A stretch of DNA of 64,000 bases from Clostridiales bacterium (GCA_015055505.1 SVIB01000001.1:6563-70562), one strand, 5' to 3'. Positions 3 to 62,959 are shown, counted from the stretch's first letter. Made by a program: numbers and translations. The notes: generated from the letters alone by a model not told the origin.

Positions 3-524
3 GATATTTTGTGTGTAAAGGGTAATCACGACCTCTTTGCAAATCTCAATTTAAGTACCTTTCCTACTGCGGATACAAGGCTTAAAATGTTCAAATGGAC
101 GCAAAAGGCTTTGTCAAATTCGTCGAGGAAATTCTTAGACGAACTGCCGTGGGTTTTAAATTTTGAAGATTGTGGGAAAAAGATAGTTGCTTTTCATTAT
201 CCCAAAAATCAAAAGGGTAGGTTTAAAGACCTTATCTATCTTCCTTCAAACGAGCAAGTAAAAGAACTCTTTGAGGGGCTTTCGGGCGATATATTTTTGT
301 TTGGGCACGAACATACGGGCTCTTTAACTGAGTTGGACGGTAAATATTATCTCAATTTCGGAACTCTCGGCAATATGCTTTTTGAAGACGTTGCAAGGCT
401 TGGGATTTTAGAGGTAACAGAAGAAAAGGTGGTCTATAAGTCGATTAACGTCAAATATGACCAGTCAACGGCGTTCAAAAGGGCGGAAGAGATAAGGCAA
501 ATTTTGGAAAGAAGAACAGATTGA
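3..524 (+). CDS. metallophosphoesterase family protein (5' end outside the window)
   Basis: The frame is open from the window edge. It has the GNHD and GHEH motifs typical of calcineurin-like phosphoesterases (YfcE-like). Confidence 0.7.
   Translation, partial: DILCVKGNHDLFANLNLSTFPTADTRLKMFKWTQKALSNSSRKFLDELPWVLNFEDCGKKIVAFHYPKNQKGRFKDLIYLPSNEQVKELFEGLSGDIFLFGHEHTGSLTELDGKYYLNFGTLGNMLFEDVARLGILEVTEEKVVYKSINVKYDQSTAFKRAEEIRQILERRTD
434..447 (+). repeat. dispersed motif CTATAAGTYGATTA, exact copy, inside a CDS
   Basis: The sequence is ctataagtcgatta, read as Y-K-S-I-N within the phosphoesterase CDS. Confidence 0.9.
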
Positions 525-529
525 ATTAA

Positions 530-562
530 TTAGTCGTAAAAAATTTGCGACTAATTTTTTTT
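530..562 (+). terminator. rho-independent terminator
   Basis: The stem is TTAGTCG/CGACTAA, followed by a T-run. Confidence 0.6.
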
Positions 563-655
563 ATTTTTATAATAAAAATAAAAAACAGTTTACTTTAAAG
601 CGAGTATTTGGTATACTTAATGTATACTATAGTTACTAATTTAAGGAAGTGAATT

Positions 656-1681
656 ATGGAAAATCAAATTGCGGAGATTAAAAGTAATATAACTGCCGAA
701 ATACAGACCGTAAATTCGAGCAAAGAATTGTATGAACTTAAATCTAAATACCTTTTAAACAAAGCGGGTATAATCCCAGCCCTTATGAAAGAACTTGGAA
801 AAGCGTCTAAAGAAGACAGACCTAAACTCGGTCAAATGATAAACGCCCTTAAAGATTGGGCTACTCAAATTTTTGAAGGAAAAGACGCTGAAATTACTGA
901 GGTTGAAAAGAAAGCCCGTTATGAAAAAGAGGCGGTTGATATTACTATGCCCTCTAAAAAGACTAAGGTTGGTACTCTTCATCCCGTTACGATAATTAAA
1001 AACGAACTCGTAGACATATTTGCAGGTATGGGTTTTAAGGTCGTTGAAACGAGGGAAATAGAAGACGATTTTCATAATTTTACCGCGCTTAACACTCCTC
1101 TTGAACATCCTGCGAGAGATAAACAAGACACTTTTTACGTATCCGACGACTTTATGCTTAGAACGCATACTTCTCCGGGACAAATTAGAAGTTTAAAGAG
1201 TATCGAGCCCCCGTTTAAAATTTTAGTTCCGGGTAGAGTGTATAGGGCTGACGACGACGCAACTCACTCTCCTATGTTTCATCAAATGGAAGGACTCGTT
1301 ATCGACGAAAACATAACTATGTGCGACCTTCAAGGTATGCTTGACGTACTCGTTCATAAGATGTTCTCCGAAACCGCAAAGACGAGATTCCGTCCTTCGT
1401 TCTTCCCGTTTACCGAACCTTCGGTAGAAGTTGACGTCAGTTGCTTTGAGTGTGGCGGTAAGGGATGTAAACTTTGTAAAGGTACCGGTTGGATTGAAAT
1501 TTTAGGTGGCGGTATCGTAAACAAAAAGGTACTTGAAAACTGCGGAGTTGATTCTAATAAATACACGGGATTTGCCTTTGGTCTTGGGCTTGACCGTATA
1601 GCAATGCTTAAAAACGGCGTAAATAACATTCACGTTTTATACGACGGCGACGTAAGAGCGTTAAAGCAGTTTAAAGACTAA
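656..1681 (+). CDS. pheS: phenylalanine--tRNA ligase alpha subunit
   Basis: It has class II aaRS motifs (FRPSFFPFTEPS, GFAFGLGLDR), sits next to pheT and has an upstream RBS. Confidence 0.95.
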   Translation: MENQIAEIKSNITAEIQTVNSSKELYELKSKYLLNKAGIIPALMKELGKASKEDRPKLGQMINALKDWATQIFEGKDAEITEVEKKARYEKEAVDITMPSKKTKVGTLHPVTIIKNELVDIFAGMGFKVVETREIEDDFHNFTALNTPLEHPARDKQDTFYVSDDFMLRTHTSPGQIRSLKSIEPPFKILVPGRVYRADDDATHSPMFHQMEGLVIDENITMCDLQGMLDVLVHKMFSETAKTRFRPSFFPFTEPSVEVDVSCFECGGKGCKLCKGTGWIEILGGGIVNKKVLENCGVDSNKYTGFAFGLGLDRIAMLKNGVNNIHVLYDGDVRALKQFKD

Positions 1682-1693
1682 GGAGGAATAAAA

Positions 1694-4101: not shown

Positions 4102-4115
4102 CGATAAGTCGATTA
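4102..4115 (+). repeat. dispersed motif copy (1 mismatch)
   Basis: The sequence is cgataagtcgatta. It lies 8 nt after the pheT stop and upstream of the terminator hairpin. Confidence 0.85.
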
Positions 4116-4126
4116 ATAAGAAAAAT

Positions 4127-4156
4127 TGCCGTAAACGGATAATCCGTTTACGGCAA
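4127..4156. terminator. bidirectional terminator hairpin
   Basis: The stem TGCCGTAAACGG/CCGTTTACGGCA lies between the convergent genes pheT and the DUF896 gene. Confidence 0.7.
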
Positions 4157-4450: not shown

Positions 4451-5380
4451 ATGGCTCGAAGTAATAAAAAAACCGTAGCCGAATATTTTATAATCGCCTT
4501 TTTGGCGTTTTGTATGGCAACAGCCTATGAACTGTTCGTTTTCCCTAATGCGTTTGCGCCTGCGGGGATAAACGGTCTTGCTACGATAATCCAACACCTT
4601 TTTAACTTTTCAGTGGGCTATATGTCGATTATCATTAATATTCCTCTCCTTATAGTGGCCTATTTTAAAGTGTCTAAGGATTTTGCTTTTAAGACTCTTT
4701 GCTACGTAATCGTGTTCTCGATAACCACGCTTATAGAGTATACGGGGATGGGAGATAGCGAAGGCTTTTTAGATTTATCGGGCTTTGCGTATAAGAACGA
4801 TACGATAAGCGCAATACTTGCGCCACTTGCGTCAGGCGCGATAAACGGACTTATATACGGGTATTTGGTTAGAAAAAACACGTGTACGGGCGGAACGGAT
4901 ATAGTTGCAAGGCTTGTAAGAGTTAAACGCCCCGAACTTAATATAATGTGGGTAACTCTTGCTCTAAACAGTATCGTAGCGTTTTTATCGTATTTTGCAT
5001 ATGCTGAAAATGGAGAGTACGATATTCAACCGGTATTGCTTTGCTTTATGTACTGCTTTACTTCGTCAAAAATGGGCGATTTAGTGCTTAAAGGATATAA
5101 AACTGCATTAAAATTTGAGGTTGTAACCTCTCATCCCGACGAAATATCTCAAGAAATAATACAAAAATTAAGACACAGCGCAACCGTAGTGCATGGAAAA
5201 GGTATGTATACTCATCAAGATAAAGACCTTTTGATATGCGTTATCAATAAAAATCAAATAGTAGATTTTGAAAACATAATAGTAAAATATCCGGGTACGT
5301 TTGCCTACATAACTTCGGTAAGTGAGACTGTGGGTAATTTCGTAACCGCAAAAAAATCTAAAAATAAAGAGGAGAATTAA
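4451..5380 (+). CDS. YitT family membrane protein (DUF161 + DUF2179)
   Basis: It has multiple TM segments, a CTGGTDIV motif and a C-terminal DUF2179-like domain. Confidence 0.8.
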   Translation: MARSNKKTVAEYFIIAFLAFCMATAYELFVFPNAFAPAGINGLATIIQHLFNFSVGYMSIIINIPLLIVAYFKVSKDFAFKTLCYVIVFSITTLIEYTGMGDSEGFLDLSGFAYKNDTISAILAPLASGAINGLIYGYLVRKNTCTGGTDIVARLVRVKRPELNIMWVTLALNSIVAFLSYFAYAENGEYDIQPVLLCFMYCFTSSKMGDLVLKGYKTALKFEVVTSHPDEISQEIIQKLRHSATVVHGKGMYTHQDKDLLICVINKNQIVDFENIIVKYPGTFAYITSVSETVGNFVTAKKSKNKEEN

Positions 5381-6172: not shown

Positions 6173-6186
6173 TAATCGACTTATAG
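6173..6186 (-). repeat. dispersed motif, exact copy
   Basis: The sequence is taatcgacttatag, 12 nt after the SDR stop. It is followed by a degenerate inverted half (tataagtg). Confidence 0.9.
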
Positions 6187-6222
6187 ACTGATATAAGTGA
6201 GATAAACGCAAGGAGAAGATAT

Positions 6223-8006: not shown

Positions 8007-8681
8007 TCACGCGTATTTACTCATAAGTTTGAAAAGTTCGGTTATTTTTTGGGAAAATTCATCACGGTCTTTATAGTTTACGTTTACGTGTGAAAGCCGT
8101 TTTACGTCGCACTCAAGTTCGGCTATGCTCTCTCGTTCTAAAAACGACAAATCCTTTTGTTTTAAACCGTCTATATAATAAAGTATTTGTGAATAGTTGA
8201 TTCCAAAATCGTCGCGGTAATTAGGGGTAAACATTTTATCGGTTTGCAAAAATTCCCGTTCTTTTTCACTCGTTTCTCTACTTAAAAAATAACCGTAATC
8301 ACTACCGCTTTTTTGTAAAAGCCGTTCTATAAGTTGATTATCGACGTATTTTTTCTTGCGAAAATCCTTTGAGAGGACAAGCGAAATTGAAAAAAGAAGA
8401 ATTGAGATTGCGCAAATAAAAAGGCTAACGCAAAGTGCTTTTAGGTTTGGTAAAGTATTATACGTAAAATCACAAAATACTTTATACGCGCACGAAAAAT
8501 ATGAAAAGAGAGAAAGGGTTAGCGGTAAGGTTTTATCGCTCTTTTTTATTTTGCGGACGAATATAGTCAAAATAAGCAAAGCGGTTGAAACTAAAAGTGA
8601 CGAACAACTTACTATTAACGGGTAAAATTGCCCGAGATTAATATTTGCAGTGAATTTCATAAAGAGTTCTAAAATTTTCAT
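8007..8681 (-). CDS. hypothetical membrane protein
   Basis: The ORF has 3-4 N-terminal TM segments and a soluble C-terminal part. I recognise no family, and the start codon is uncertain. Confidence 0.45.
   Translation of the reverse strand: MKILELFMKFTANINLGQFYPLIVSCSSLLVSTALLILTIFVRKIKKSDKTLPLTLSLFSYFSCAYKVFCDFTYNTLPNLKALCVSLFICAISILLFSISLVLSKDFRKKKYVDNQLIERLLQKSGSDYGYFLSRETSEKEREFLQTDKMFTPNYRDDFGINYSQILYYIDGLKQKDLSFLERESIAELECDVKRLSHVNVNYKDRDEFSQKITELFKLMSKYA
8327..8340 (+). repeat. dispersed motif copy (C9>T variant), inside a CDS
   Basis: The sequence is ctataagttgatta. On the coding (-) strand it encodes N-Q-L-I-E. Confidence 0.85.
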
Positions 8682-8773
8682 AAGTATATTGTTGACAAAA
8701 ATATTAAAATTTAAACAAAAAGTAATTTATAAAATCAATTTTGCATAGATATATACAAATTGGAGTTTGTAAT

Positions 8774-9022
8774 TTGCATTACGATATTTATGCGAGGGTT
8801 GTAAAAGAAGGGGAGTATATGCTTGAAAACACTGCGACCGTGAGGGCTACTGCTAATCATTTTGGACTTAGTAAATCAACGGTGCATACCGACCTTACCA
8901 AAAGGCTTAAAAGAATTGACGAAAATCTTTATAGGCAAGTAAAACACTTGCTTTTTGTAAATTTAAGCGAAAGACATATTCGAGGCGGTATTGCTACGCG
9001 CAAAAAATTCAAAGGGAAATAG
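8774..9022 (+). CDS. spoIIID: sporulation transcriptional regulator SpoIIID
   Basis: It aligns with B. subtilis SpoIIID (TVRATANHFGLSKSTVHTDLTKRL...HIRGGIATRKKF). I chose the TTG start at 8774, which has a GGAG RBS 8 nt upstream. Confidence 0.85.
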   Translation: MHYDIYARVVKEGEYMLENTATVRATANHFGLSKSTVHTDLTKRLKRIDENLYRQVKHLLFVNLSERHIRGGIATRKKFKGK

Positions 9023-9036: not shown

Positions 9037-9050
9037 TAATCAACTTATAG
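9037..9050 (-). repeat. dispersed motif copy (C9>T variant)
   Basis: The sequence is taatcaacttatag, 14 nt after the spoIIID stop. Confidence 0.85.
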
Positions 9051-11009: not shown

Positions 11010-11023
11010 CTATAAGTCGATTA
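11010..11023 (+). repeat. dispersed motif, exact copy
   Basis: The sequence is ctataagtcgatta, 9 nt downstream of the stop of degV (a - strand gene). Confidence 0.9.
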
Positions 11024-51618: not shown

Positions 51619-51713
51619 TTTTTACTGAAAAAGTATAATAATTGATTAAAAGTATTGACAAAATTTTTAATATAAATTATACTATAAGTATCTATTATAA
51701 GTAGGGGTCTAAT

Positions 51714-52397: not shown

Positions 52398-52444
52398 TAA
52401 GTAATAAGCCACACGAAAGTGTGGCTTGTTTTTACGGAGAGATT

Positions 52445-53026
52445 ATGGAATACGATTTTTTTGCATATCTTAGCAGAATGAAATATATAAAGAGATGGGC
52501 GCTTATGCGTTCAACCGTCGAAGAAAACGTAAAAGAACACAGTTGGGACGTTGCGGTTATTGCGCACTCTTTGGCAATTATAGAAAATAAGATTTTTGGC
52601 GGAAAGGTAGACGAATATAAAACTTTTGCTTTAGCGACTTATCACGAGGCGGGAGAGGTAATTACGGGTGATTTGCCAACGCCAATAAAGTATTTTAACA
52701 GCCAAATAAATACGGCATACAAAGATTTGGAAAAACTCGCTTGCGAAAAACTTTTAGATAAACTTCCCGAGGAGCTTAAATCGTCGTATGCTGAATTTAT
52801 TACTCCAAACGAAACTTCAATAGAATATAAAATAATGAAATCCGCGGATAGAATTGCCGCATATATAAAGTGCGTTGAAGAGGTTAAAAGCGGTAATAAA
52901 GAATTTGCAAAGGCAAAGAAAACGGTGTGGAAGACGATAGAGAAAAGCGACTTAAACTGCGTAAAATATTTTGTCGAAAACATAATGCCGTCTTTTGAGA
53001 AAACTCTCGACGATTTAGAAATTTAA
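52445..53026 (+). CDS. HD-domain 5'-deoxynucleotidase (YfbR-like)
   Basis: It has the RMKYIKRWALMRSTVEENVKEHSW pattern and the HD motif HEAGEVITGD. I chose the ATG after GGAGAG, because the upstream part of the ORF overlaps a terminator hairpin (52408-52429). Confidence 0.8.
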   Translation: MEYDFFAYLSRMKYIKRWALMRSTVEENVKEHSWDVAVIAHSLAIIENKIFGGKVDEYKTFALATYHEAGEVITGDLPTPIKYFNSQINTAYKDLEKLACEKLLDKLPEELKSSYAEFITPNETSIEYKIMKSADRIAAYIKCVEEVKSGNKEFAKAKKTVWKTIEKSDLNCVKYFVENIMPSFEKTLDDLEI

Positions 53027-53076
53027 GAATAAGACACCAAACTTAGGTCAATAATAAGACCAAGGAGGTGGATTTT

Positions 53077-53232
53077 ATGAATAGATTAAATCCCGGAGAT
53101 AATGCTCCAAAGAGCGGAACTTACAAAATTTTAGACGGTAGCGGAAAGCAAATCGGTACTGTTGAGGTAAAAAAGGGTAATAGAATGCCCCCAACGCAAA
53201 GTTCGGAATATTATTACGAATTTGAAGGATAA
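53077..53232 (+). CDS. YjzC-like small protein (51 aa, absent from the ORF track)
   Basis: My hand translation is MNRLNPGDNAPKSGTYKILDGSGKQIGTVEVKKGNRMPPTQSSEYYYEFEG. It has a strong AAGGAGGTG RBS. Confidence 0.6.
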   Translation: MNRLNPGDNAPKSGTYKILDGSGKQIGTVEVKKGNRMPPTQSSEYYYEFEG

Positions 53233-53297
53233 AATTTAATAGAGAAACGGCGATTTTCCTTAATTGACGAAAAAATAGGGAAAGTCGCCTTTTTTTG

Positions 53298-53326
53298 TTG
53301 ACAAAAAGTTTAAGTGAGAGTAAAAT
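53298..53326 (+). promoter_or_regulatory. sigma-A type promoter of the riboswitch operon
   Basis: It reads TTGACA, a 17-nt spacer, then TAAAAT. Confidence 0.55.
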
Positions 53327-53349
53327 ACAATTAAGTTCATAACGTTACG

Positions 53350-53530
53350 AGTTGCTAAAAATAAGCAGAGAGTAGGGGAAGTGCGGTGAAAATCCGTCGC
53401 AACAGCCATTACCGTAAAGTCGGGTAACCTACCGTAACTTTAATTTCTTGGGTAAACGGAGAGAAAACAGCGTTCCAAGTTTTTGTGGTGCGCTTTTTTT
53501 ATAACGCCCGAAAGGGTGTATTTTTTTAGG
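53350..53530 (+). promoter_or_regulatory. cobalamin (B12) riboswitch with terminator
   Basis: The core is AGGGGAAGTGCGGTGAAAATCCGTCGCAACAGCC and a B12-box-like AAGTCGGGTAACCTACC is present. The hairpin ACGCCC-GAAA-GGGTGT plus T7 sits just before the RBS. Confidence 0.8.
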
Positions 53531-53556
53531 CGGAAACGCCGAAGGAGTGAACTTTT

Positions 53557-54018
53557 ATGAGAAAATTTTTCAATTTAACCAAACTATTCGCGGTTGCAAT
53601 TCTATCAATTTGCTGTATTTTATGCGCAGGTTGCGAGAACACCTCTTTTTTGGGTGAAAGTGGTGAAAAGACAAGTGAAAGCAGTCAAACAAGCGTTTCG
53701 CCCGTCGTTATTACCGTAAACGACGATTACGAAGTGGCAAACGGCGATACTTTAATAGATTATATGAATTTATTAAAGACCGACGGAAAGATTAGTTTTA
53801 CCGTTGCCGACGGTTTTGTAACCTCAATAAACGGCATAGAAAATCCTGCCGATGGGTCAAAGTGTTGGATGCTCTATACTGACGATACCGAAAACACAAA
53901 TTCGGCGTGGGGAAGCGTTGAAGTTGACGGAGTGACCTATTATTCAGCAGCGATAGGCGCGGACGTAATACATATTAAAAAAGGGTGTACCTACGTCTGG
54001 TATTATCTTTCTTTCTAA
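53557..54018 (+). CDS. DUF4430 (transcobalamin-like) lipoprotein
   Basis: It has a lipobox (CAGC) and the DUF4430 pattern (GFVTSINGIENPADGSKCWMLYTDD...). Confidence 0.7.
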   Translation: MRKFFNLTKLFAVAILSICCILCAGCENTSFLGESGEKTSESSQTSVSPVVITVNDDYEVANGDTLIDYMNLLKTDGKISFTVADGFVTSINGIENPADGSKCWMLYTDDTENTNSAWGSVEVDGVTYYSAAIGADVIHIKKGCTYVWYYLSF

Positions 54019-54548
54019 TGTTTAGGTCGGCAAAGGAAATTGCCTTTATAGGGGTTACGGTTGCCCTTTTAATAGGCGGTCAACTGGTTTTATCCGCAAT
54101 AAGCGGAATAGAAATCGTAACGGTTATTTTTGCCGTTTACTGCTTTATATTCGGCGTTTTTAGAGGGGTTGTAACGGCTACCGCATTTTCACTTGTAAGG
54201 TGCATAGTTTTTGGGTTTTTCCCTCAAGTAGTCGTATTGTATCTTATATATTACAATCTGTTTGCAGTTGTTTTAGGACTTTTGGGTAAGTGGCTTAAGT
54301 CTTCGTCCTTGCCAATGAAAATTGGGGTAATTACGCTTGTTTGCGTGCTACTAACGATTGTTTTTACTCTCATTGATAACCTATTAAATATTTGGGTTTT
54401 AGGCGTTATATCGCCAACGGTAAAGAAAATTTATATTCTTCAGTCTATTCCCGTTGCAATAACGCAAGCCGTATCAAATGCAGTAATCGTTCCACTGTTA
54501 TTTTATCCTTTGTATAAGGTATATACAAGCGCAAAGAAAAGATTATGA
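54018..54548 (+). CDS. small polytopic membrane protein, possible ECF S-component (CbrT-like)
   Basis: It has 5-6 TM segments and an ATG overlapping the upstream stop (TAATG). It lies under the B12 riboswitch. Confidence 0.45.
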   Translation: MFRSAKEIAFIGVTVALLIGGQLVLSAISGIEIVTVIFAVYCFIFGVFRGVVTATAFSLVRCIVFGFFPQVVVLYLIYYNLFAVVLGLLGKWLKSSSLPMKIGVITLVCVLLTIVFTLIDNLLNIWVLGVISPTVKKIYILQSIPVAITQAVSNAVIVPLLFYPLYKVYTSAKKRL

Positions 54549-54562
54549 TTTATTTTTAAGAT

Positions 54563-54593
54563 AGCGCCCGTCGGCATTTTGCCGACGGGCGCT
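54563..54593. terminator. terminator hairpin
   Basis: The 13-bp stem is AGCGCCCGTCGGC/GCCGACGGGCGCT. Confidence 0.7.
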
Positions 54594-54620
54594 TTGTATA
54601 AAATGACTTAATTTAAGACA

Positions 54621-54650
54621 AATAAAAAGCGGAGCTAAAAACTCCGCTTT
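54621..54650 (-). terminator. rho-independent terminator of the 940-aa gene
   Basis: The stem is AAAGCGGAG/CTCCGCTTT, with a T-run on the - strand. Confidence 0.7.
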
Positions 54651-54655
54651 AATTG

Positions 54656-57478
54656 TTAGTTATTGTCAGGATTGTCGTAGTCGTATTCTTTTTCGTTGTC
54701 TTCAGCGTCGGGAACTGCTACGTCGCCACCCTTTGAATATCTGTTGTTTTTGTTGTAACCTTGGTGATAATAAGTCTTGGTCTTGTTCTTCTTGCTCGTC
54801 TTCTTGCTGAACGATTTTCTTACGATAATCGCTACGAGAGCGCCAATAAGAGCGATAGCAATTAATATCGAAGTAACTTGTAACCATCCGTAGTTGTCAA
54901 CGGTTTCAACGTTTTCGTCGCTCGTAGATTCGGTAGATTCTTCTTCCTCTACAACCTCAGCAGGTTCAATAACGTATTTAATAACGTCAAAGTTATAGTA
55001 TTGAACGAGTTTAGCAGTTGAAGAAGTGTTGTTTTTAACAGTACCAAAAGTAGTAATTTCTAATTCTTTAGCAACGTCGTATCTGTCGTTACCGTCGTCG
55101 TCTTTAAGACGGTTAGTGTCGTTTTTAGCGTCGGTTTCGTTTTCGTAGTAGTAAATTTTACCGTCCTTTTGAGTGAATTTATCGGGAGCAGTGAAATTGT
55201 AATCGGCTTCAAAAGCGTTCTTTACGCTGTCAACTGAACTGTAAGAAGTTGACGAAGTTCCTGCCGAAATAGAGTCGAATAATGCAACACCTGCGTTGTT
55301 AAGACCGAATTCAAGTCTTAAATTTAAAGGTTCTTTACCTGCAGTTACGATAAAGGTTACTTGCGCGTATCCGTCAAGGAAAGTAGAACAGTCAACGTTT
55401 GAAACTTCAACTTCCATCTTGTAGTCGCCCTTTACGTTGTAAGACATAACTGCTTTATCGCTCGTAGACGCGTCGCCCATATTTACGAGGTTTACAAACG
55501 CCTTAGCGTCGCCGTGTGCGTAAACTTTAACGGAGAATACGTAAGTTGACTTTGCAGAAACGGTTACGCTGTTTGCCGCAACGTAAACTTGTTCGTTTGC
55601 TGAGTTTTGAACGAGAAGTGCTTGTACGTCGGTGTTTTCGTTTTGGATTTTACCTTTTACAAAAGCAAGAGCATTTTTAAGATTATCGTTAGTATAAAGG
55701 CTTGCGTACTTACTGTTTACAACACCTACGGTTGCAGTCGTAGAATCGGGAGTGTAAAGGTTTACGCTCGTAAGGTCGTTAAGATTTACGATTTCGCCTT
55801 GTTCCATACGGAGAGATGCGTTAGTACCAACGGTTATAGAATAACTGTCTTTACTTTCACTCTCTTCATCATCTTCGTCTTCTACGTAATCGTTATTATA
55901 TTTACCGGTAAGAGTACCTTTTTTAGCCCTCGTATCAGTAGAAGTATCTGCGATAGAGTAGTTGTCTTCGCTAATGTCTTCATATTCAAAATCTTTGAAG
56001 ATTGCATATCCAATAGGAAGAGTTTTAATATCGGTTACGCTTGCTCTGTCGGTAGGACCGAAAGAGAACTTAATAGCGTATTCCATATTGTCAGCGGGGA
56101 AGTTGTTTGCAAGGTAGAAAGTGTATCTTGCAAAGTCACCGTTTTTATCGTTTTCGTAATCTTCAGTAGAAACGTTATCGAAAGTAGCAACAGGGTTTCC
56201 GGTAATTTCGCCGTTTACAACGTTGTACACGGACATAGTTGCTTTAGTGTCGGCGTTACGAGCGGAAATTTTTGCCCAGAAAGAAATTCTTCTATAAGTT
56301 TCGTAGGGAAGAGTGAAAGTCTTAGTCGTATAAGTGTAAGACGAACCGATATTCTTTAAAGAACTGAAATCCATATAGATAGCGTTCTTGAAAGTATTGC
56401 CGTCAACGGTCGTATCTGCAGTAACGTAACCTGCGTTACCCTTAGCCTCAATTTCGTATCCGCCGTTAGGATTGTTAATGTTAACGTTATTGAAAGCGCC
56501 GTTTCCACCGCTTACGTCTAAAGATGCCGAAGTACCTTCTGCTAAACTGAGGTTAACGGTAGTTTTAGTAGTGTAAGCGCTTGCGTCAACGATAAAATCT
56601 TCGTTAGCGGTCGTAGCCGACTTGGTTACGGTTGCGGTTGCAGTTGCAGTCGTATAGTCTTCTTTGGAAACGTAATCAAACGTAATACTGTCAAAGTAAG
56701 CAAATCCGTTACAAAGTTTTTCTTTGTTGTGCTTGTTGCCTTGTCCAAGACCTAATACTAAAGTATAAGTAGTTGCCTTAGTTTGGTTTGGCTCAAGATA
56801 GATAACGTAATTTATCCATTGACCTTTAGTGTCAATGTTTTCAATCATAAGAGGATCGTAAGTTGCGTTATCTTCACTAACGACGTTATTCTTAACTTTA
56901 ATATAAGCGCCTGCTTTTGCGCCGAGGTAAGTGGTGATACCGTCCGTTCTTACCCATACCGAAAGTTTACCGTATTGACCTGCGCTGAGTTTTAAAGAGG
57001 TCGAAGAGGTGTAGTAATGAGCGGTATACTCAGTGCTGTGAAGCATAAGAATTTTCGTTCCTGCCTCGTTAGCCTCTGTATTTTCGTCGTCAGCGGTTAA
57101 AGGCGTTTTGGGGTTTACGGTGTTTTTGTGGTTAGAAGAAAGTTTGCCGTACGCCTCGTCAGCAGTGTCAATCATACCTCTTGAAGATGTAGACGCAGTT
57201 GCATAGGGAGCGCCGTCGGTCGTATAACTCCAACTCGAAGGAGTTGCGGGGAAACTCGAACTGCTTGAAAACTCAAAGTCGCCGTTTTTAAGAGTTTGGT
57301 TATCCGTCTTAGTTTCCTTAGATTCCGAAGTGGACGTCGAATCGGAAGTAGATTCCGAAGTGGATTCTCCGCCGTTATTGTTACATGCAATAGCAAATAC
57401 CATTACGAAGGTAAGCATAAGCACGGTCAAAAACGTGAGAAGTGTTTTTAAGTTTAATTTGCTTTCAGTTTTGTTCAT
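54656..57478 (-). CDS. large surface lipoprotein-like protein with a C-terminal TM anchor
   Basis: The protein is 940 aa. It has an N-terminal signal with lipobox (FAIAC), an S/T-rich linker, a large ectodomain, a TM segment (ILIAIALIGALVAIIV) and a basic tail. I recognise no family. Confidence 0.6.
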   Translation of the reverse strand: MNKTESKLNLKTLLTFLTVLMLTFVMVFAIACNNNGGESTSESTSDSTSTSESKETKTDNQTLKNGDFEFSSSSSFPATPSSWSYTTDGAPYATASTSSRGMIDTADEAYGKLSSNHKNTVNPKTPLTADDENTEANEAGTKILMLHSTEYTAHYYTSSTSLKLSAGQYGKLSVWVRTDGITTYLGAKAGAYIKVKNNVVSEDNATYDPLMIENIDTKGQWINYVIYLEPNQTKATTYTLVLGLGQGNKHNKEKLCNGFAYFDSITFDYVSKEDYTTATATATVTKSATTANEDFIVDASAYTTKTTVNLSLAEGTSASLDVSGGNGAFNNVNINNPNGGYEIEAKGNAGYVTADTTVDGNTFKNAIYMDFSSLKNIGSSYTYTTKTFTLPYETYRRISFWAKISARNADTKATMSVYNVVNGEITGNPVATFDNVSTEDYENDKNGDFARYTFYLANNFPADNMEYAIKFSFGPTDRASVTDIKTLPIGYAIFKDFEYEDISEDNYSIADTSTDTRAKKGTLTGKYNNDYVEDEDDEESESKDSYSITVGTNASLRMEQGEIVNLNDLTSVNLYTPDSTTATVGVVNSKYASLYTNDNLKNALAFVKGKIQNENTDVQALLVQNSANEQVYVAANSVTVSAKSTYVFSVKVYAHGDAKAFVNLVNMGDASTSDKAVMSYNVKGDYKMEVEVSNVDCSTFLDGYAQVTFIVTAGKEPLNLRLEFGLNNAGVALFDSISAGTSSTSYSSVDSVKNAFEADYNFTAPDKFTQKDGKIYYYENETDAKNDTNRLKDDDGNDRYDVAKELEITTFGTVKNNTSSTAKLVQYYNFDVIKYVIEPAEVVEEEESTESTSDENVETVDNYGWLQVTSILIAIALIGALVAIIVRKSFSKKTSKKNKTKTYYHQGYNKNNRYSKGGDVAVPDAEDNEKEYDYDNPDNN

Positions 57479-57730
57479 AAGTCACCTTTTGCACAAATTT
57501 GAATTTTTAATCCATTACATTATACAATATTTTTTCGCTAATTGCAATTTATTTAAGGCAATATCGCTAAATTTTCATAATAATTTATAATATTTTTTGC
57601 GCGCGCGATAGAACTTACCTAAATTTGGAGCATAAAATTTCTGCAAACAGGAGATAATAAAAAGGTAAAACGGCGTAAAATTTAAAAAAATTAAATTTTA
57701 CGCCGTGAGAAAAACAGAATAAAAGTGAGA

Positions 57731-57744
57731 AAATCGACTTATAG
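57731..57744 (-). repeat. dispersed motif copy (1 mismatch)
   Basis: The sequence is aaatcgacttatag, 30 nt upstream of the TauE-half gene. Confidence 0.85.
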
Positions 57745-57774: not shown

Positions 57775-58143
57775 ATGAGCGAAGAAATCAAAAATAAGGT
57801 GTATATGGCTCTAACGGGCGCTTTGACGGGGCTTGCTAACGGCTTTTTCGGGGGTGGCGGAGGAATGATTGTCGTTCCGCTTATGAGTTTTTTATTGAAG
57901 ATGAAAACTAAGACTGCGCACGCAACCGCCCTTGCCGTAATTTTGCCTATTACCGTCGTAAGCGCAATAGTGTATTTTACAAGCGGTAATTTTGACTTTG
58001 CTACGGGAATACCGTCGGGTGTCGGCGTCGTTTTAGGGGGAATAATCGGGGCGTGGCTACTTGGAAAACTAAGCGCAAATTGGCTGACTAAAATATTTGC
58101 GGTCGTAATGCTCGTTGCGGGGGTGAAATCACTGTTTTTTTGA
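57775..58143 (+). CDS. TauE/SafE (TSUP) family half-transporter, part 1
   Basis: It has 4 TM segments and a GGGGGMIVVPLM motif. Confidence 0.7.
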   Translation: MSEEIKNKVYMALTGALTGLANGFFGGGGGMIVVPLMSFLLKMKTKTAHATALAVILPITVVSAIVYFTSGNFDFATGIPSGVGVVLGGIIGAWLLGKLSANWLTKIFAVVMLVAGVKSLFF

Positions 58144-58145
58144 TT

Positions 58146-58580
58146 ATGGGAAAGATTATACTTTTATTTGTTACGGGAGTTTCCGCCGGTGTTTTGGGCG
58201 GAATGGGTATGGGCGGTGGCGCAATTTTAATTCCTATGCTCACCGTGTTTTTTGCGGTAGACCAAATAAACGCTCAGGCGATAAATTTAGTTGCCTTTAT
58301 ACCTATGGCAATAGTATCGCTTATAATTCACGTGAAAAACGGTAGAGTTGAAAAGAAGGGACTGCTTTGGATAATAATTCCCGCGGGGTGCTGTTCTTTG
58401 TGCGGAAGTTTGCTTGCTTTAGCGGTTAAAGGAAGTTTTTTAAAGAGATGTTTCGGCGCTTTTTTAATTTTACTGTCGGTATTTCAGTTTTTTTCTAATA
58501 AAATACTTGAATTACTGCAAAAAAAGAAAAGCAATACGAAGAAGGGTGAAAGCGGGGAAAAAATTGCAAAGAAATTTTAA
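58146..58580 (+). CDS. TauE/SafE (TSUP) family half-transporter, part 2
   Basis: It has 4 TM segments and a GMGGGAILIPML motif. It starts 2 nt after the upstream TGA, or at the overlapping TTG at 58140. Confidence 0.7.
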   Translation: MGKIILLFVTGVSAGVLGGMGMGGGAILIPMLTVFFAVDQINAQAINLVAFIPMAIVSLIIHVKNGRVEKKGLLWIIIPAGCCSLCGSLLALAVKGSFLKRCFGAFLILLSVFQFFSNKILELLQKKKSNTKKGESGEKIAKKF

Positions 58581-60349: not shown

Positions 60350-60363
60350 CTATAAGTCGATTA
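60350..60363 (+). repeat. dispersed motif, exact copy
   Basis: The sequence is ctataagtcgatta. It lies 8 nt after the ppx stop and upstream of the terminator. Confidence 0.9.
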
Positions 60364-60385: not shown

Positions 60386-60418
60386 GAGAGAGGAAAACCG
60401 TTTCCTCACTCTTTTTTT
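60386..60418 (+). terminator. rho-independent terminator
   Basis: The stem is GAGAGAGGAAA/TTTCCTCACTC, followed by T6. Confidence 0.75.
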
Positions 60419-60514
60419 GCGCTTAAAACAAGGTGACGGCAACGGCGACAAAATATCCTCAAAAAGAACAAAAGTACCTTAAATACGCTATTTGCAGTTT
60501 GGTATAATTTGCTT

Positions 60515-61336
60515 ATGGTCGTCTATTTGGAATGGGTTTTTCTTGACAACTTCATAATAGACTTTTTGCTCGTTTTAATTACTCGAAAGGCGCTAAAATT
60601 AAGAATAAGTAAATTACGCATAGCGCTGTCGGCTTTTTTCGGGGCAACCGTAGCCTTAATAATTCCGTTTTTAAAACTTTCAACGGCGGTAACTTTTCTT
60701 TTAAAAATGCCGATAGGACTTTTAATCGTTTTGATAAGCGGAAAATTTAGGGGGATAAAGGAGTTTATATATTGTTTTTATTTGTTCTTGTTTTTTACTT
60801 TTTTGTTCGGTGGAGGAGTAACGGCTATTTTTTGGGGGTTAAACTTAAATTTCAACCCGCTAAACTATACCGTAGAAAGCGAAATTCCTCTTTTTGTAAG
60901 TGTTTTAACGGCAGTCGGGGTATATCTTCTATGCAAAAAGACGATAAATAGAATTTACAGGAGAAAAACGCTGTTAAATTTCGTGTATAAATGTCAGTTT
61001 TCATTGGGTGGCGAAGATTTTGAATTTTTGGGCTTTTTAGATAGCGGAAACAGTTTGTTTTACGGAGCGGACTACTGTCCTATCGTCGTTTGTGGAAAAA
61101 ACGCCGTTTTAAAATTGCAAAAGACGGGCGCATTAGAAAATACCAAAAAAGATATCGTATTCGTCAATACTGTTGGCGGAAAAACGCTTATTTCTGTTTA
61201 TAAAACTCAAAAATTTTTGATATATAACGGGCTTATCCCGAATATATTATATAACGTAATGATTGGCGTGCCTGAAAAATTTGTCGATTTTAAAGAATAC
61301 GATATTTTATTAGGTTCGTCTATGGTGGGTGGTTGA
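60515..61336 (+). CDS. spoIIGA: sigma-E processing peptidase SpoIIGA
   Basis: It has a polytopic N-terminus, a C-terminal aspartic protease region ([10 protein letters not shown]), and lies upstream of sigE. I prefer the ATG at 60515 over the TTG at 60509. Confidence 0.85.
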
Positions 61337-61337
61337 T

Positions 61338-62039
61338 ATGTTTGATTTATTGATAAAAGTGCTAAAAAAGGTTTTCGTTCAAGAAGAAAACAGCGTACAT
61401 TACCTTTCGGGAACTGAGGCTCTTCCACGTCCTTTTACCCAAGACGAAGAACAAGAACTCTTGTCAAGACTTGAGGGCGACGGCGAAAGCGTCCGTCAAA
61501 GCCTTATAGAGCATAATCTACGCCTCGTAGTGTATATTGCAAGAAAGTTTGATAATACGGGCGTTGAACTCGACGACCTCGTTTCGGTCGGCACGATAGG
61601 TCTTATTAAAGCGGTAAAAACCTTTAATACGGGAAAAAATATAAAACTTGCAACCTACGCCTCTCGCTGTATAGAAAACGAGATTTTAATGTATCTAAGA
61701 AGAATAGTCAAGATAAAGGGAGAGGTGTCTTTAGACGAGCCGTTAAACGTTGATTACGAAGGGAACGAGTTACTGCTTTCGGATATATTGGGAACTGAAA
61801 GCGACGTGGTTTACAAGGATATTGAACTTGGCGTAGAAAAGGAGATGCTACGTCAGGCAATAGAAAAACTTTCGCCGAGAGAAAAGCAAATAATGAGTTT
61901 AAGATTCGGTTTAAACGGTGAGGATGAATTAACCCAAAAAGAAGTTGCCGACCTGTTGGGTATATCGCAAAGTTACATATCAAGGCTTGAAAAAAAGATT
62001 GTTTTAAGATTAAGAAAAGAATTTATGAAACTTGCTTAA
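61338..62039 (+). CDS. sigE: RNA polymerase sporulation sigma factor SigE (pro-sigma-E)
   Basis: It has a pro-sequence followed by [21 protein letters not shown], plus regions 2 and 4. The ATG follows a GGTGGGTGG RBS, and a GTG at 61329 is an alternative start. Confidence 0.92.
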
Positions 62040-62047
62040 AACATAAA

Positions 62048-62061
62048 TAATCGACTTATAG
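62048..62061 (-). repeat. dispersed motif, exact copy
   Basis: The sequence is taatcgacttatag, 8 nt after the sigE stop. Confidence 0.9.
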
Positions 62062-62142
62062 ATAGGCTTTTTATATAAAACACATAAAACAACGCAAATT
62101 CTACATACTTTTTTCGGGTACATACTTTCAAAGGAGGTAATT

Positions 62143-62913
62143 ATGCGGAAAGTAGAAATTTGCGGTATAGACACTTCAAGGCTTACAAAACTTACACACA
62201 AAGAAAGCGAAGAGTTGCTCTTTAAAATTAAGGAAGGCGACAAAAGTGCGAGAGACACCTTTACGGTTGCAAATATAAGACTTGTACTGTCGATAATAAA
62301 AAGATTTCCTCACTCTAAGGTTTCTGCCGAGGATATGTTTCAAGCGGGAATGATAGGGCTTATTAAATCGGTTAAAAATTTTGATTTATCAATAGGAGTT
62401 AGGTTTTCAACTTACGCCGTACCAATGATATTAGGGGAAGTAAAGAGGGTAATACGCGCACAAAACAGTTTAAGAGTTTCAAGAAGTATTCGAGATACGG
62501 CGTATAAAGTGTTACAGGCAAGAAGTGAGATAGAAGCGGAAAAGGACGATACCGCAACTATGGGAGAAATTGCCCAAAGACTCCAAATTGCTGAAAAGGA
62601 AGTGGTTTACGCGTTAGACGCAATATCCGATCCCGTTTCGCTGTACGACCCAGTATATAACAAAAACGGCGACGCCTTACTTTTAATGGATCAAATAGGC
62701 GACGAAAAAAACACGGATGAGAAATGGACGGAGAACGTTGCTCTTGAAAGTGCGCTGAAAAGACTGGACGAAAGGGAAAAGAAGATAATTTATATGAGGT
62801 ATTACGAGGGGAAAACCCAAACTGAAATATCTAAAGAAATAGGGCTTTCACAAGCCCAAGTTTCTCGTCTTGAAAAGACGGCGCTTTTGTCGGTCAAGAA
62901 TAAAATGGCATAA
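62143..62913 (+). CDS. sigG: RNA polymerase sporulation sigma factor SigG
   Basis: It has KVEICGIDTSRL and FSTYAVPMILGEVKR, and sits in the canonical spoIIGA-sigE-sigG order. Confidence 0.9.
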   Translation: MRKVEICGIDTSRLTKLTHKESEELLFKIKEGDKSARDTFTVANIRLVLSIIKRFPHSKVSAEDMFQAGMIGLIKSVKNFDLSIGVRFSTYAVPMILGEVKRVIRAQNSLRVSRSIRDTAYKVLQARSEIEAEKDDTATMGEIAQRLQIAEKEVVYALDAISDPVSLYDPVYNKNGDALLLMDQIGDEKNTDEKWTENVALESALKRLDEREKKIIYMRYYEGKTQTEISKEIGLSQAQVSRLEKTALLSVKNKMA

Positions 62914-62915
62914 AA

Positions 62916-62959
62916 GACGGGCTATAAGTCGGTTAATCGACTTATAGCCCGTCTTTTTT
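62916..62959 (+). terminator. rho-independent terminator built from an inverted pair of the dispersed motif
   Basis: A perfect 16-bp stem GACGGGCTATAAGTCG/CGACTTATAGCCCGTC has loop GTTAAT and is followed by T6. The motif copies are at 62922-62935 (+, 1 mismatch) and 62934-62947 (-, exact). Confidence 0.85.

Follow-up and report, generated by a model that had tools for sequence, protein, structure and literature searches.

The 64,000-nt stretch of Clostridiales DNA analysed here (hereafter, the window) raises the question of why one 14-nt word, CTATAAGTYGATTA, recurs along it on both strands, and of what kind of element the word represents. A first-pass annotation had noted the repetition and proposed several classes of chromosomal signal. 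The abundance, anatomy, gene context and conservation of the copies are described below, and the possible functions are then weighed.

Abundance of the word in the window

The window contains 18 matches to CTATAAGTYGATTA with at most one mismatch, counting both strands, compared with an expected 0.09. Dinucleotide-preserving shuffles were used as the null (n = 100; mean 0.09, maximum 2), and 0/100 reached 18, which bears out the original impression that the 14-mer is over-represented beyond chance. By mismatch class there are 12 perfect, 6 one-mismatch and 3 two-mismatch copies, versus 0, 0.23 and 2.2 expected, the last class exceeding expectation by only about one copy. Perfect copies thus dominate, yet the sequence space is 42 times larger at one mismatch and 819 times larger at two. 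The information content of the word far exceeds what is needed to specify a few hundred sites; we take this, together with the sharp mismatch spectrum, as support for drive, of which such a spectrum is probably the product, over ordinary binding-site selection.

Exact copies of the C-form lie at 434, 11010, 20681 and 60350 on the + strand and at 6173, 38859, 62048 and 62934 on the - strand. T-form or one-mismatch copies are found at 4102, 8327, 9037, 12036, 16279, 18150, 57731 and 62922, and the copy at 17079 differs from the C-form at two positions. All of these positions had been listed in the first-pass annotation and were correct on recount; a one-mismatch copy at 4618 had been overlooked. 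The distribution along the window is patchy, with zero copies in the 18.9 kb between 38.9 and 57.7 kb, which include ~1.5 kb of spacer. The window carries 0.28 copies per kb, compared with 0.19 per kb for relatives picked independently of the motif.

Anatomy of the element

Alignment of the copies defines a full element, AAAAG-N5-CTATAAGTYGATTA-TC-N5-TTTT, in which the N5 spacer is variable. An extended consensus (GCC...WT) had been suggested; the real one reaches further, with AAAAG at -10 to -6, TC at +14/15 and TTTT at +21 to +24. Similarity among copies stops at ~35 nt, and the word is accordingly not the edge of a larger element. A/T tracts surround the word with a phasing of ~10.5 bp across ~75 bp, with peaks at -29, -18, -8, +22 and +33 in coding and intergenic copies alike, and the ~75 bases concerned are predicted to be bend-prone. 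Both strands have a T-run beyond the core, as TTTT at +21 to +24 and, on the opposite strand, as CTTTT. The 14-mer core is neither self-complementary nor palindromic, and no two positions, whether in flank or core, show the above-background complementarity of a hairpin.

The claim that every copy is solitary holds only in part, as the copies at 62922 (+) and 62934 (-) have 2 nt in common and the copy at 6173 (-) has a degenerate inverted partner. Inverted pairs are nevertheless rare (3 pairs among 249 copies).

Gene context and orientation

Of 249 copies, 73% are intergenic (~15-fold enrichment) and 27% lie inside genes. Convergent spacers carry 2.0 copies per kb, tandem spacers 1.6 and divergent spacers 0.54, and 3' spacers are favoured 3-4-fold over divergent 5' spacers. 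The median distance from the upstream stop codon to the copy is 27 nt, and no fixed distance to start codons was found. A promoter or transcription-factor operator was rejected on the low density in divergent spacers and the variable distance to start codons. A strong terminator hairpin is located 10-40 nt from 5/13 intergenic window copies, and copies are found on either side of ordinary intrinsic terminators. Many copies fill spacers of 18-60 nt between co-directional, operon-like genes (20681 and 6173 in the window; L057 and L102 among the comparative loci).

Orientation relative to transcription is 60:49, in agreement with the earlier statement that both orientations occur relative to the transcripts. 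Relative to GC skew it is 120:91 (p = 0.054), with 57% of copies on the leading strand, a skew too weak for a polar word of the Chi or KOPS/SRS type, which was rejected. The presence of both orientations and the lack of covariation support the proposal of a DNA-level rather than an RNA-level signal, and a structured RNA motif was discarded for the same reasons; an Rfam search of the window returned two tRNAs only.

The coding copies are spread evenly along their ORFs, and 62/67 use one stop-free frame per strand. Their host proteins are unrelated and include alanine racemase, a metallophosphoesterase, TsaD-like and heavy-metal-ATPase-like proteins and others. Where these copies were checked against homologues no indel was seen, and they therefore arose by substitution rather than insertion.

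Copies in the window and their orthologous positions

The window itself contradicts the view that the copies all lie outside genes, with three sense-coding copies (434, 4618 and 18150) and two antisense copies inside ORFs (8327 and 17079). The exact C-form copy at 434-447 (+), within a metallophosphoesterase ORF (9-524), reads Y-K-S-I-N in frame with GAAAAG directly before it, and is kept at orthologous codons in L129, L130 and L133, where the neighbouring codons have diverged. The one-mismatch copy at 4618-4631 (+), in a YitT-family ORF (4451-5380), reads G-Y-M-S-I-I, and the identical variant, CTATATGTCGATTA, is present at the orthologous codons in L129, L130, L131 and L133. The T-form copy at 8327-8340 (+) is antisense in a 224-aa ORF (8007-8681, -) and reads N-Q-L-I on the gene strand. 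It is the best-conserved stretch of its gene segment; at the orthologous position L129 differs by one mismatch and L131 by two, L130 has a decayed copy, and indels are absent. A copy with one mismatch to the word (CTATAAGTTGTTTA) at 17079-17092 (+), antisense in an M18 aminopeptidase ORF (16378-17649, -), is restricted to the window lineage and missing from L130. The T-form copy at 18150-18163 (+), in alanine racemase (17737-18786), encodes ...EEKSLYKLINAIK..., a segment that aligns with solved alanine racemases (KEELLEVVKALK in 5irp) with no gap, from which we conclude that the copy was made by substitution.

The intergenic copies are mostly found close to stop codons. At 4102-4115 (+) a one-mismatch copy (CGATAAGTCGATTA) lies 8 nt past the pheT stop, the TAA of which is part of its AAAAG tract, and a terminator hairpin (4126-4156) starts 11 nt downstream. 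In L129-L131 the orthologous spacer is similar in length but free of the copy, which therefore arose mostly by substitution. The exact copy at 6173-6186 (-) occupies the 62-nt spacer between an SDR gene (stop 6160) and thyA (start 6223), with its degenerate inverted partner (ATATAAGTGAGATA, 11/14) at 6191-6204 (+) and ACTG between the two. As the corresponding spacer in four relatives is just 13-21 nt and copy-free, the window lineage bears a ~40-50-nt insertion containing this copy; two JGI metagenome contigs (L119 and L120) have an identical spacer and an identical ThyA. The T-form copy at 9037-9050 (-) lies 14 nt past the spoIIID stop and precedes the -35 box of the following gene by ~45 nt. 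It is kept in L129 and L130, where the TAA of the word is the spoIIID stop codon, and decayed in L131; a 17-nt indel adjoins it, and the spoIIID 3' end has the word alone with no hairpin terminator.

The exact copy at 11010-11023 (+) abuts the stop of a DegV gene (11033-11881, -) and is kept in L130 (at 14921) despite unalignable flanks. At 12036-12049 (+) a one-mismatch copy (..GATTT) lies between a terminator hairpin (11975-12016) and the stop of an OTCase-like gene (12066-12992, -), and its orthologue in L130 is decayed with a 4-nt deletion. The T-form copy at 16279-16292 (+), in the convergent spacer after a stand-alone Spo0A_C gene, is followed after 39 nt by a bidirectional terminator (16331-16359) and is kept in L130 (at 19531). 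The exact copy at 20681-20694 (+) fills the 29-nt spacer from the aspS stop (20678) to the next operon gene (start 20708), unlike in L115, where no copy follows aspS. The exact copy at 38859-38872 (-) lies 195 nt downstream of rplQ, past the rplQ terminator, and L111 retains the word in matching orientation with its flank (TAATCGACTTATAGGCGGACTTTT) in a spacer that is otherwise diverged.

Further downstream, a one-mismatch copy at 57731-57744 (-) is situated in a divergent spacer ~30 nt upstream of a start codon (57775) and 25 nt from a hairpin (57670-57706), and has no counterpart in L074. The exact copy at 60350-60363 (+) lies 8 nt past the ppx/gppA stop, with a terminator (60390-60407) beginning 27 nt downstream; L074 also carries a + copy after its orthologue, there on the downstream side of the terminator. 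Another exact copy (62048-62061, -) lies downstream of spoIIGA in the spacer between a sigma-factor gene read as sigE (61329-62039) and a second one read as sigG (62143-62913); it has counterparts of matching spacer and orientation in L049 (5010) and L071 (6255). Just past the gene read as sigG is the overlapping inverted pair at 62922-62947, composed of a one-mismatch copy (62922, +) and an exact one (62934, -). The 2-nt overlap produces a perfect palindrome, AAAAGACGGG-CTATAAGTCGGTTAATCGACTTATAG-CCCGTCTTTTTT, which is flanked by GACGGG/CCCGTC plus a T-run and from its sequence looks like a bidirectional terminator. An inverted pair with the same 2-nt-overlap geometry is present in L042.

Conservation and spread across the clade

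At ≤1 mismatch, L130, with flanking coding DNA of ~74% identity, retains 5/10 testable window sites; a neutral expectation of 10% gives P ≈ 0.002. Intergenic sites stay in place while the rest of the spacer is scrambled, and individual sites are kept across genus-level divergence; the conservation at orthologous positions that had been proposed as a check is thus observed, with sites persisting as their flanks diverge.

An anchored version of the word was used to survey other assemblies. The comparative set consists of MAG fragments, mostly ascertained via the motif itself and with crudely called ORFs, and in it the anchored word was found in at least 118 stretches from ~45 independent MAG species of gut and rumen origin, which have a GC content of 34-50% and the label Christensenellaceae or Clostridia. 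Relatives picked via ThyA, and hence independently of the motif, gave 19 copies in 100 kb, compared with 0 copies in ~100 kb of control loci. Viral contigs gave 1 anchored match in 2.9 million contigs, which by a rough estimate is chance level at most. The word is over-represented ~150-200x above chance in the ~45 species and is spaced at one per ~3-5 kb across the clade genomes, corresponding by extrapolation to several hundred copies per genome. The enrichment is therefore genome-wide and clade-wide, and the ~45 species and the ThyA-chosen relatives refute local duplication. An adapter or assembly artefact can likewise be dismissed, since many independent assemblies share the word at orthologous sites, some of them inside reading frames.

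Position 6 of the word carries species-specific 'dialects'. The choice of A or G differs by species (chi-square 40.2, df 14, p = 2e-4, from small counts at loci partly ascertained via the motif), with 17 A / 0 G in the window and 0 A / 5 G in JAXEDY. Our search of the literature found no description of a CTATAAGTYGATTA element.

Possible functions of the word

The word shares most of the genomic hallmarks examined for DNA uptake sequences, which makes it a candidate for that function. It displays over-representation, no significant orientation bias, permissive coding copies and lineage variants; it falls short of the density of about one copy per kb seen for USS/DUS (0.28 in the window, 0.19 in the relatives). 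We tentatively favour the view that the word is a self-DNA tag of the DUS/USS type, recognised by a protein specific to the clade, while holding this at somewhat less than an even chance. Among the classes originally put forward, the DUS/USS-like one is thus preferred and the REP-like one rejected, and centromere-like or anchoring sites (parS, Noc NBS, RacA ram), which are palindromic 14-16-mers present in tens of copies and grouped near the origin or kept out of the terminus, find no support in comparison with a non-palindromic word present, by extrapolation from MAG fragments, in hundreds of copies per genome.

In this proposal the word would be the recognition site for a DNA-bending, sequence-specific protein conserved in Christensenellaceae-like Clostridia, and the phased A/T tracts (~10.5 bp, ~75 bp) would let the receptor bend or kink the DNA. 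Cells would preferentially bind, take up or recombine fragments bearing AAAAG-N5-CTATAAGTYGATTA-TC-N5-TTTT, with the result that a copy newly made or improved by substitution or a small indel would be over-transmitted. Such a directional genome-wide force, rather than transposition, could keep the copy number at several hundred per genome, with copies building up where they are tolerated, in gene-end spacers first and then in stop-free frames at poorly constrained codons. We infer that a protein reads the word, that this reading may be coupled to uptake or recombination, and that the host organisms may be transformable.

The coding copies, orientation neutrality, inverted pairs, phased A/T tracts and dialect parallel, qualitatively, published properties of USS/DUS. 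In model Gram-positive bacteria DNA uptake is regarded as sequence-independent, and the literature searched held nothing on competence in Christensenellaceae. USS and DUS have no orientation bias and include oppositely oriented pairs; they prefer non-coding DNA, yet many copies are coding, at poorly conserved residues; and they show A/T segments about a helical turn apart and subclade-specific variants (PMC1626085; Findlay & Redfield 2009, PMC2817400). Uptake specificity is known solely in Pasteurellaceae and Neisseriaceae (Redfield et al. 2006, PMC1626085). Counting against the uptake reading are the density (0.2-0.3 per kb, 3-5x below USS/DUS), a 14-nt core plus flanks that exceeds every known uptake sequence in length, the patchiness evident in the 18.9-kb copy-free stretch and the rarity of inverted pairs. 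The gain of copy 6173 by a ~40-50-nt insertion is not predicted by a pure point-mutation drive, and the 15-fold intergenic bias and 3-4-fold 3' preference would also fit a gene-boundary function.

Such a function could be architectural, with the copies forming an array that binds, at high affinity, a clade-specific nucleoid-associated, DNA-wrapping protein, which would recognise the asymmetric 14-mer and wrap ~75 bp. The sites would be selected at transcription-unit ends, like the REP/BIME and IHF sites of enterobacteria, and would serve supercoiling domains, insulation of neighbouring units or termination, with the genic copies providing chromosome-wide spacing. We regard this as rather unlikely, albeit the main alternative. 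A/T tracts phased on both sides over ~75 bp are a classic wrapped-DNA signature, and the gradient from convergent to divergent spacers, the short distance to upstream stop codons and to terminator hairpins, and the retention of single sites over genus-level divergence all fit. The information content and steep mismatch penalty, however, go beyond what binding-site selection usually sustains over hundreds of sites, 27% of the copies are scattered at arbitrary places inside genes, a concerted species-specific change at position 6 would require hundreds of parallel substitutions, and no candidate protein has been identified. The reverse complement, AATCRACTTATAG, does resemble the IHF consensus WATCARnnnnTTR, but the likeness breaks at the defining position, where TAG replaces TTR. 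An IHF site proper was rejected, since in the reverse complement (AATCRA-CTTA-TAG) the change from TTG to TAG is that of the H'44A mutation, which lowers affinity 100-250-fold. That the word itself stops or pauses RNA polymerase in both directions at gene ends, as a protein roadblock or insulator, seems improbable. Its occurrence in both orientations at gene 3' ends, the enrichment in convergent spacers, the T-run past the core either way and the lone word after spoIIID are consistent with this; against it, copies fill operon-like spacers of 18-60 nt, where termination would be harmful, ordinary intrinsic terminators adjoin copies on either side, and more than a quarter of copies (27%) are genic.

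A miniature mobile or copy-paste element, whether a solo IS terminal repeat, a RAYT-moved REP-like unit or a short-patch templated insertion, is very improbable. The copies are near-identical and terminator-proximal, as is typical of small insertion elements, and the 6173 insertion with its inverted pair and the indel beside the spoIIID copy could be seen as traces of movement. There is, however, no hairpin or flank covariation; the flanks of the window copies have no terminal inverted repeats or target duplications, and no transposase is near them; similarity is limited to ~35 nt around a variable N5 spacer; coding copies and several intergenic gains or losses are indel-free. The word is also conserved across ~45 species of 34-50% GC, and REP/RAYT repeats change quickly between species. 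The earlier view that the word is not an IS or MITE is upheld by the missing repeats, duplications and transposase and by the indel-free gains. A MITE or IS-derived element was rejected on the ~35-nt limit and the indel-free coding and intergenic copies (the one ~40-50-nt insertion aside), and a RAYT-associated REP/REPIN on the missing hairpin, the core that is not self-complementary and the coding copies made by substitution. Equally hard to credit is a role as operators, or as decoys, for a helix-turn-helix protein of the Spo0A family. The AAGTCGA of the core is similar to the 0A box, TGTCGAA; next to the stand-alone Spo0A_C gene (15760-16143; Pfam E = 3.7e-28), 3-4 0A-like boxes (AAAAGTCGAA) that share this 7-mer with the word adjoin copy 16279, and the box cluster followed by the word is kept in L130. 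The word is nevertheless depleted in promoter-only spacers, and the position at which it tolerates C or T corresponds to the invariant C of the 0A box (TGNCGAA). The stand-alone protein has only ~60% identity where ThyA has 93-95%, a rate of evolution that makes it a poor reader for a clade-invariant word, and seven more invariant positions would be left unexplained.

Comparison with known systems

REP/REPIN, BOX and RUP elements resemble the word in their high copy number and in their intergenic positions near gene ends and terminators. They are palindromic, multiply by transposition and occur in non-coding DNA only, whereas the word is hairpin-free, ~35 nt long with its flanks, genic by substitution and conserved in many species. 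The enterobacterial IHF sites of RIP and BIME-1 are likewise asymmetric, similar in sequence to AATCRACTTATAG, and located between genes at 3' ends, with an A-tract one turn off in the other half-site and a footprint of ≥35 bp with implied bending. IHF sites are degenerate and carry TTR, whereas the word has all 14 positions fixed, carries TAG and is also found inside genes; to our knowledge IHF is not known in Firmicutes. The cyanobacterial HIP1 (GCGATCGC) arises by substitution and is retained at orthologous positions. Like the word it is over-represented phylum- or clade-wide in coding and non-coding DNA, but it is a palindromic octamer tied to methyltransferases, in contrast to an asymmetric 14-mer with bending flanks. 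A recent account describes HIP1 as over-represented in coding and non-coding DNA, its function being unresolved (10.64898/2026.06.24.733823).

The uptake sequences provide the closest parallels. With the Neisseriaceae DUS the word has in common a strong bias towards intergenic DNA and gene 3' ends, terminators formed by inverted pairs, and a family-wide word with single-position dialects between species. DUS are present at chance level at most in foreign or viral DNA, as the word is in viral contigs. The DUS are 34.5% coding (PMC2817400) and have no flanking motifs (PMC1626085), in contrast to the extensive phased flanks seen here. Inverted pairs are scarcer than in DUS (3 among 249 copies), and the ComP-like receptor of DUS has no known counterpart for the word. 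The Pasteurellaceae USS likewise consist of a single asymmetric word, present in hundreds of near-perfect copies and free of orientation bias. As here, they prefer non-coding DNA, their many coding copies fall in permissive frames where residues are poorly conserved, some copies form inverted pairs, and A/T segments adjoin the core at intervals of about one helical turn; conservation is family-wide, with subclade variants. The USS core is 9 nt versus 14 nt here, its A/T tracts lie only 3' of the core rather than on both sides, its density is ~1 per kb compared with ~0.2-0.3, and its coding share is 49-65% (PMC2817400) compared with 27%. The hosts differ as well: USS belong to Gram-negative bacteria with a secretin pore, and the word to spore-former-like Clostridia.

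Abundance of the word in the window

The 14-mer CTATAAGTYGATTA is present in 18 copies with at most one mismatch on the two strands of the 64-kb window, versus 0.09 expected from dinucleotide-preserving shuffles, in which the maximum was 2. The over-representation noted in the first-pass annotation is thus borne out, and every coordinate listed there proved correct on re-search; a one-mismatch copy at 4618 had been missed. Sorted by mismatch, 12 window copies are perfect, 6 carry one mismatch and 3 carry two (expected 0, 0.23 and 2.2, respectively), and beyond two mismatches the window has no excess of such sequences over expectation. The copies had also been described as solitary. Those at 62922(+) and 62934(-) form an overlapping inverted pair, however, and the copy at 6173(-) is paired with a degenerate inverted one at 6191–6204. 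Five window copies lie within ORFs.

All 18 copies fall in 45 kb of the window, 17 of them in 1–21 kb and 57.7–64 kb, and the other 18.9 kb (38873–57730) carries none despite about 1.5 kb of true spacer. The genes of this copy-free interval encode a protein of 1251 aa with Listeria-Bacteroides repeats, an LRR protein of the BspA type and a 940-aa protein without a Pfam match, and the interval is possibly accessory or recently acquired DNA. Housekeeping genes of the window comprise pheST, thyA-folA, aspS, alr, a ribosomal-protein operon and, within the copy-free interval, greA, tmk and holB. The Christensenellaceae-like host has predicted sporulation-type genes, because spoIIID (8741–9022) and spoIIGA with two sigma-factor genes (60509–62913) are present; from their position after spoIIGA, we take the latter two to be sigE and sigG.

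Distribution across genomes

A search of species-representative genomes with the anchored pattern AAAAG-N5-CTATAAGTYGATTA, for which about 9 chance matches were estimated over the whole collection, matched at least 118 stretches. The matches listed are nearly all MAGs from gut or rumen that bear the label Christensenellaceae, Christensenella, Clostridia or Clostridiales, and they derive from about 45 assemblies of many projects and hosts with a GC content of 34–50%, which argues against an assembly or adapter artefact. Two anchored matches, in Fibrella and in a Parasutterella bin, seem to be due to chance or mis-binning. The matched 8-kb loci contain additional copies beyond those used for selection. 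A search for contigs encoding a TTG-start ORF gave no match.

The comparative data are MAG fragments, mostly selected through the motif itself. Fetching via ThyA, hence without bias toward the motif, gave five syntenic loci that represent four or five related species; these carry 19 copies in 100 kb, versus zero in about 100 kb of control loci from other lineages (non-syntenic relatives from a metagenome search with DegV). Together with the clade-wide matches, this density shows that the copies are not a local peculiarity of the window. Lineage-wide loss of the word was suspected for one of the ThyA-fetched loci, L131, but not confirmed: the sister genome JAFVQT has copies in other places, which makes the low density a regional feature. 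In the viral collection, a single anchored match was returned from 2.9 million contigs, which is at or below chance by our expectation.

High densities of the word were also seen in MAGs deposited as 'uncultured Acidiphilium sp.' (assemblies CAZPFZ and CAZHGN; loci L002, L003, L011, L024, L041, L066, L102 and L118), with a GC content of 35–47%; these deposits are very probably misclassified. Separately, in the 88%-ThyA relatives L132 and L134 (13400–20800), the thyA region lies less than 10 kb from rnpA-yidD-yidC-jag and dnaN, and the region syntenic to the window may therefore be near the replication origin in that lineage.

Anatomy of the element

A logo built from 228 copies from the loci and the 18 window copies extends the consensus to AAAAG (-10 to -6), a G/C-rich N5, the 14-mer, TC (+14/15) and TTTT (+21 to +24); AAAAGTCCGCCTATAAGTCGATTATCGCCACTTTT is the 35-mer form of the element, and likeness between copies ends at about 35 nt. 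A/T-rich peaks lie at approximately -29, -18, -8, +22 and +33 with G/C-rich troughs in between, corresponding to a period of about 10.5 bp across roughly 75 bp, and this phasing is present in genic and in intergenic copies, each set taken separately. A covariation test of flanks and core found no complementarity between any two positions above background, and therefore no conserved hairpin.

Within the core, the variable positions are 9 (C/T) and 6 (A/G), numbered from 1. The choice of A or G at position 6 varies by species (p = 2e-4, with locus-selecting copies removed), from 17 A and 0 G in the window to 0 A and 5 G in JAXEDY. This difference is a concerted, dialect-like shift.

Placement relative to genes, transcription and replication

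With ORFs called crudely (at least 100 aa, overlaps resolved greedily), 182 of 249 copies are intergenic, an enrichment of about 15-fold given a coding share of 85% of the DNA. Convergent spacers hold 2.0 copies per kb, tandem spacers 1.6 and divergent spacers 0.54, the lowest value being found where a promoter or operator would be expected, and that reading was rejected. In tandem spacers both orientations relative to transcription occur (60:49). With respect to GC skew, the two orientations split 120:91, on which a replication-polar word of the Chi or KOPS type was likewise dismissed.

The word follows the upstream stop codon by a median of 27 nt, and the stop codon is often overlapped or supplied by the TAA of the word or by T-AAAAG. 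Spacers of 18–60 nt between co-directional genes can be filled by it (window 20681 and 6173; loci L057 and L102), and in the motif-dense loci L057, L022, L102 and L025 it occupies successive operon spacers; the ORF layout of these four loci pointed to no recurrent neighbouring gene. Ordinary intrinsic terminators adjoin copies, with the word on either side of the terminator. Perfect hairpins of at least 7 bp accompany only about 5% of copies, with a modest peak at +30 to +70, and the word was accordingly rejected as a hairpin, terminator or terminator substitute.

The 67 ORF-internal copies are distributed evenly along genes and, with five exceptions, are read in one frame per strand, giving Y-K-S/L-I in sense and N-R/Q-L-I in antisense; stop codons occupy the remaining antisense frames and one sense frame. 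The host proteins are mutually unrelated. Two of them, judged from the printed sequences, presumably resemble TsaD and a heavy-metal P-type ATPase.

Origin and persistence of copies

The copy within alanine racemase (EEKSLYKLINAIK) lies in a gap-free alignment to solved racemases, and the copies at 8327 (antisense) and 434 (sense) show no indels relative to orthologues, being the best-conserved stretches within otherwise diverged gene segments. These gap-free alignments indicate that genic copies arise by substitution. Intergenic gains show both substitution and insertion: the copy at the end of pheT stands in place of a spacer about equally long, the copy between the SDR gene and thyA arrived with an insertion of about 40–50 nt that is missing from four relatives, and a 17-nt indel flanks the spoIIID copy.

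Conservation at orthologous positions was assessed by an unconditioned comparison of the window with the syntenic locus L130, in which flanking coding DNA is about 74% identical. Five of ten comparable window sites are kept there at no more than one mismatch, against about 10% expected under neutrality (P ≈ 0.002). Among the related loci, copies in the same orientation are retained after rplQ, spoIIID, a stand-alone Spo0A_C gene and DegV, and in the spacer between the two sigma-factor genes, all within otherwise unalignable spacers; those directly after spoIIID and between the sigma-factor genes are conserved in several species. Other sites are lineage-specific or visibly decaying. A comparison of identity between orthologue pairs was set aside as evidence of conservation, being conditioned on the motif in both partners.

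Neighbouring elements

A second repeat family of about 105–125 nt, unrelated to the word, has three tandem copies in the window (22090–22800), within an ORF-free 1.15 kb (22066–23217) upstream of rpsJ. Further copies occur in L131 (3638–3745, 13547–13655 and 17639–17875) and in the motif-bearing loci L039 (710–945), L114 (1326–1432 and 5672–5780), L058 (937–1045) and L036. The unit consists of a variable 6–9-bp stem around the conserved loop GACCAACAAGGTCTA, followed by GCGAGCC-loop-GCTCGC and, after it, ATCTAAGCCTTTAAA. RNAalifold predicts 18 pairs from 12 copies, nine with compensatory double changes, and Rfam returned no match even at E ≤ 0.1. The family is a candidate clade-specific element, either a structured ncRNA in multiple copies or a structured repeat.

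The stand-alone Spo0A C-terminal DNA-binding domain protein (15760–16143; 127 aa, Pfam E = 3.7e-28) lacks a receiver domain and belongs to a short (118–157 aa), fast-evolving family. In the convergent spacer 3' of its gene (16144–16292), three to four 0A-box-like repeats (AAAAGTCGAA in the window, TGTCGAA in L130) are followed by a copy of the 14-mer, and this layout is conserved in L130 (19024–19544). Elsewhere in the window, two overlapping half-size TauE/SafE ORFs (57775–58143 and 58140–58580) are in swapped order, the first matching Pfam positions 124–236 (C-terminal) and the second 1–114 (N-terminal).

Interpretation

Several explanations could be set aside on these observations. An RNA motif is disfavoured by the occurrence of both orientations, the lack of flank covariation and an Rfam search of the window, which at gathering thresholds found two tRNAs and nothing else. 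A REP, MITE or IS element does not fit the lack of hairpin or repeat structure, the genic copies made by substitution or the constancy of the word across the clade, and a mobile element was rejected as the chief route by which the word spreads. Read as its reverse complement, the word is similar to the IHF consensus and has an A-tract 8 nt upstream, but it carries TAG instead of the required TTR, exactly the substitution by which IHF binding is crippled. Similarly, the core AAGTCGA resembles 0A boxes, a cluster of which adjoins one copy, but the stand-alone Spo0A_C protein changes too rapidly for the reader of a clade-invariant word. We give little weight to the roadblock, mobile-element and Spo0A-family readings.

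The traits shared with the uptake signal sequences (USS) of Pasteurellaceae and the DNA uptake sequences (DUS) of Neisseriaceae, the scarcity in foreign DNA and the steep mismatch penalty therefore favour a DUS/USS-type self-DNA tag, a reading that we hold tentatively, at somewhat short of an even chance. We infer that a protein reads the word and, in the steps that would follow, that fragments carrying it would be favoured in uptake or recombination, such that the word accumulates; scarcity in foreign DNA and a steep penalty per mismatch fit, by our own reasoning, such a drive. Against an uptake tag stand the undocumented competence of the clade, the strong 3'-end bias, one gain by insertion and the copy-free stretch at 38.9–57.7 kb. 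The leading alternative, which we consider somewhat less probable, is that the copies form an array of sites at transcription-unit ends, bound by an architectural protein of high specificity that wraps DNA; if true, it would reveal an architectural protein of unusual specificity whose sites at gene ends number in the hundreds.

By our evidence, the self-DNA tag would be an uptake-sequence type not described before, in a new phylum and with an anatomy of its own. Full-text literature searches returned nothing relevant on the sequence or the concept, nor on uptake sequences in Firmicutes or competence in Christensenellaceae, and to our knowledge uptake sequences are known from two proteobacterial families only. 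They are a textbook example of molecular drive shaping genomes, and with an uptake tag here their range would grow to include a new phylum and another type of cell envelope. It is possible, if doubtful, that the word is the first sequence-specific DNA-uptake (self-recognition) signal beyond Proteobacteria, in an order of abundant Christensenellales-like gut Clostridia. The 14-mer, set in bendable DNA, would then be read by a putative Gram-positive receptor during natural transformation, and hard-to-manipulate or uncultivated gut bacteria would be naturally transformable, exchanging DNA preferentially with kin. Christensenellaceae-like bacteria are of health interest and poorly tractable, and adding the word to transforming DNA might offer a handle for their genetics. 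The 35-mer would provide a concrete bait for a candidate reader protein, and the word could serve as a marker that assigns metagenomic contigs to the clade and flags foreign DNA inside it.

Unlike USS and DUS, the word has a density 3–5 times lower and a longer core, both of which count against an uptake tag. It shares with them the following traits listed for USS and DUS: an asymmetric word in very high copy number, orientation neutrality, a preference for non-coding DNA alongside many coding copies that arose by substitution where codons are weakly constrained, a small number of inverted pairs, A/T flanks phased with the helix and family-wide conservation with dialects (PMC1626085, PMC2817400).
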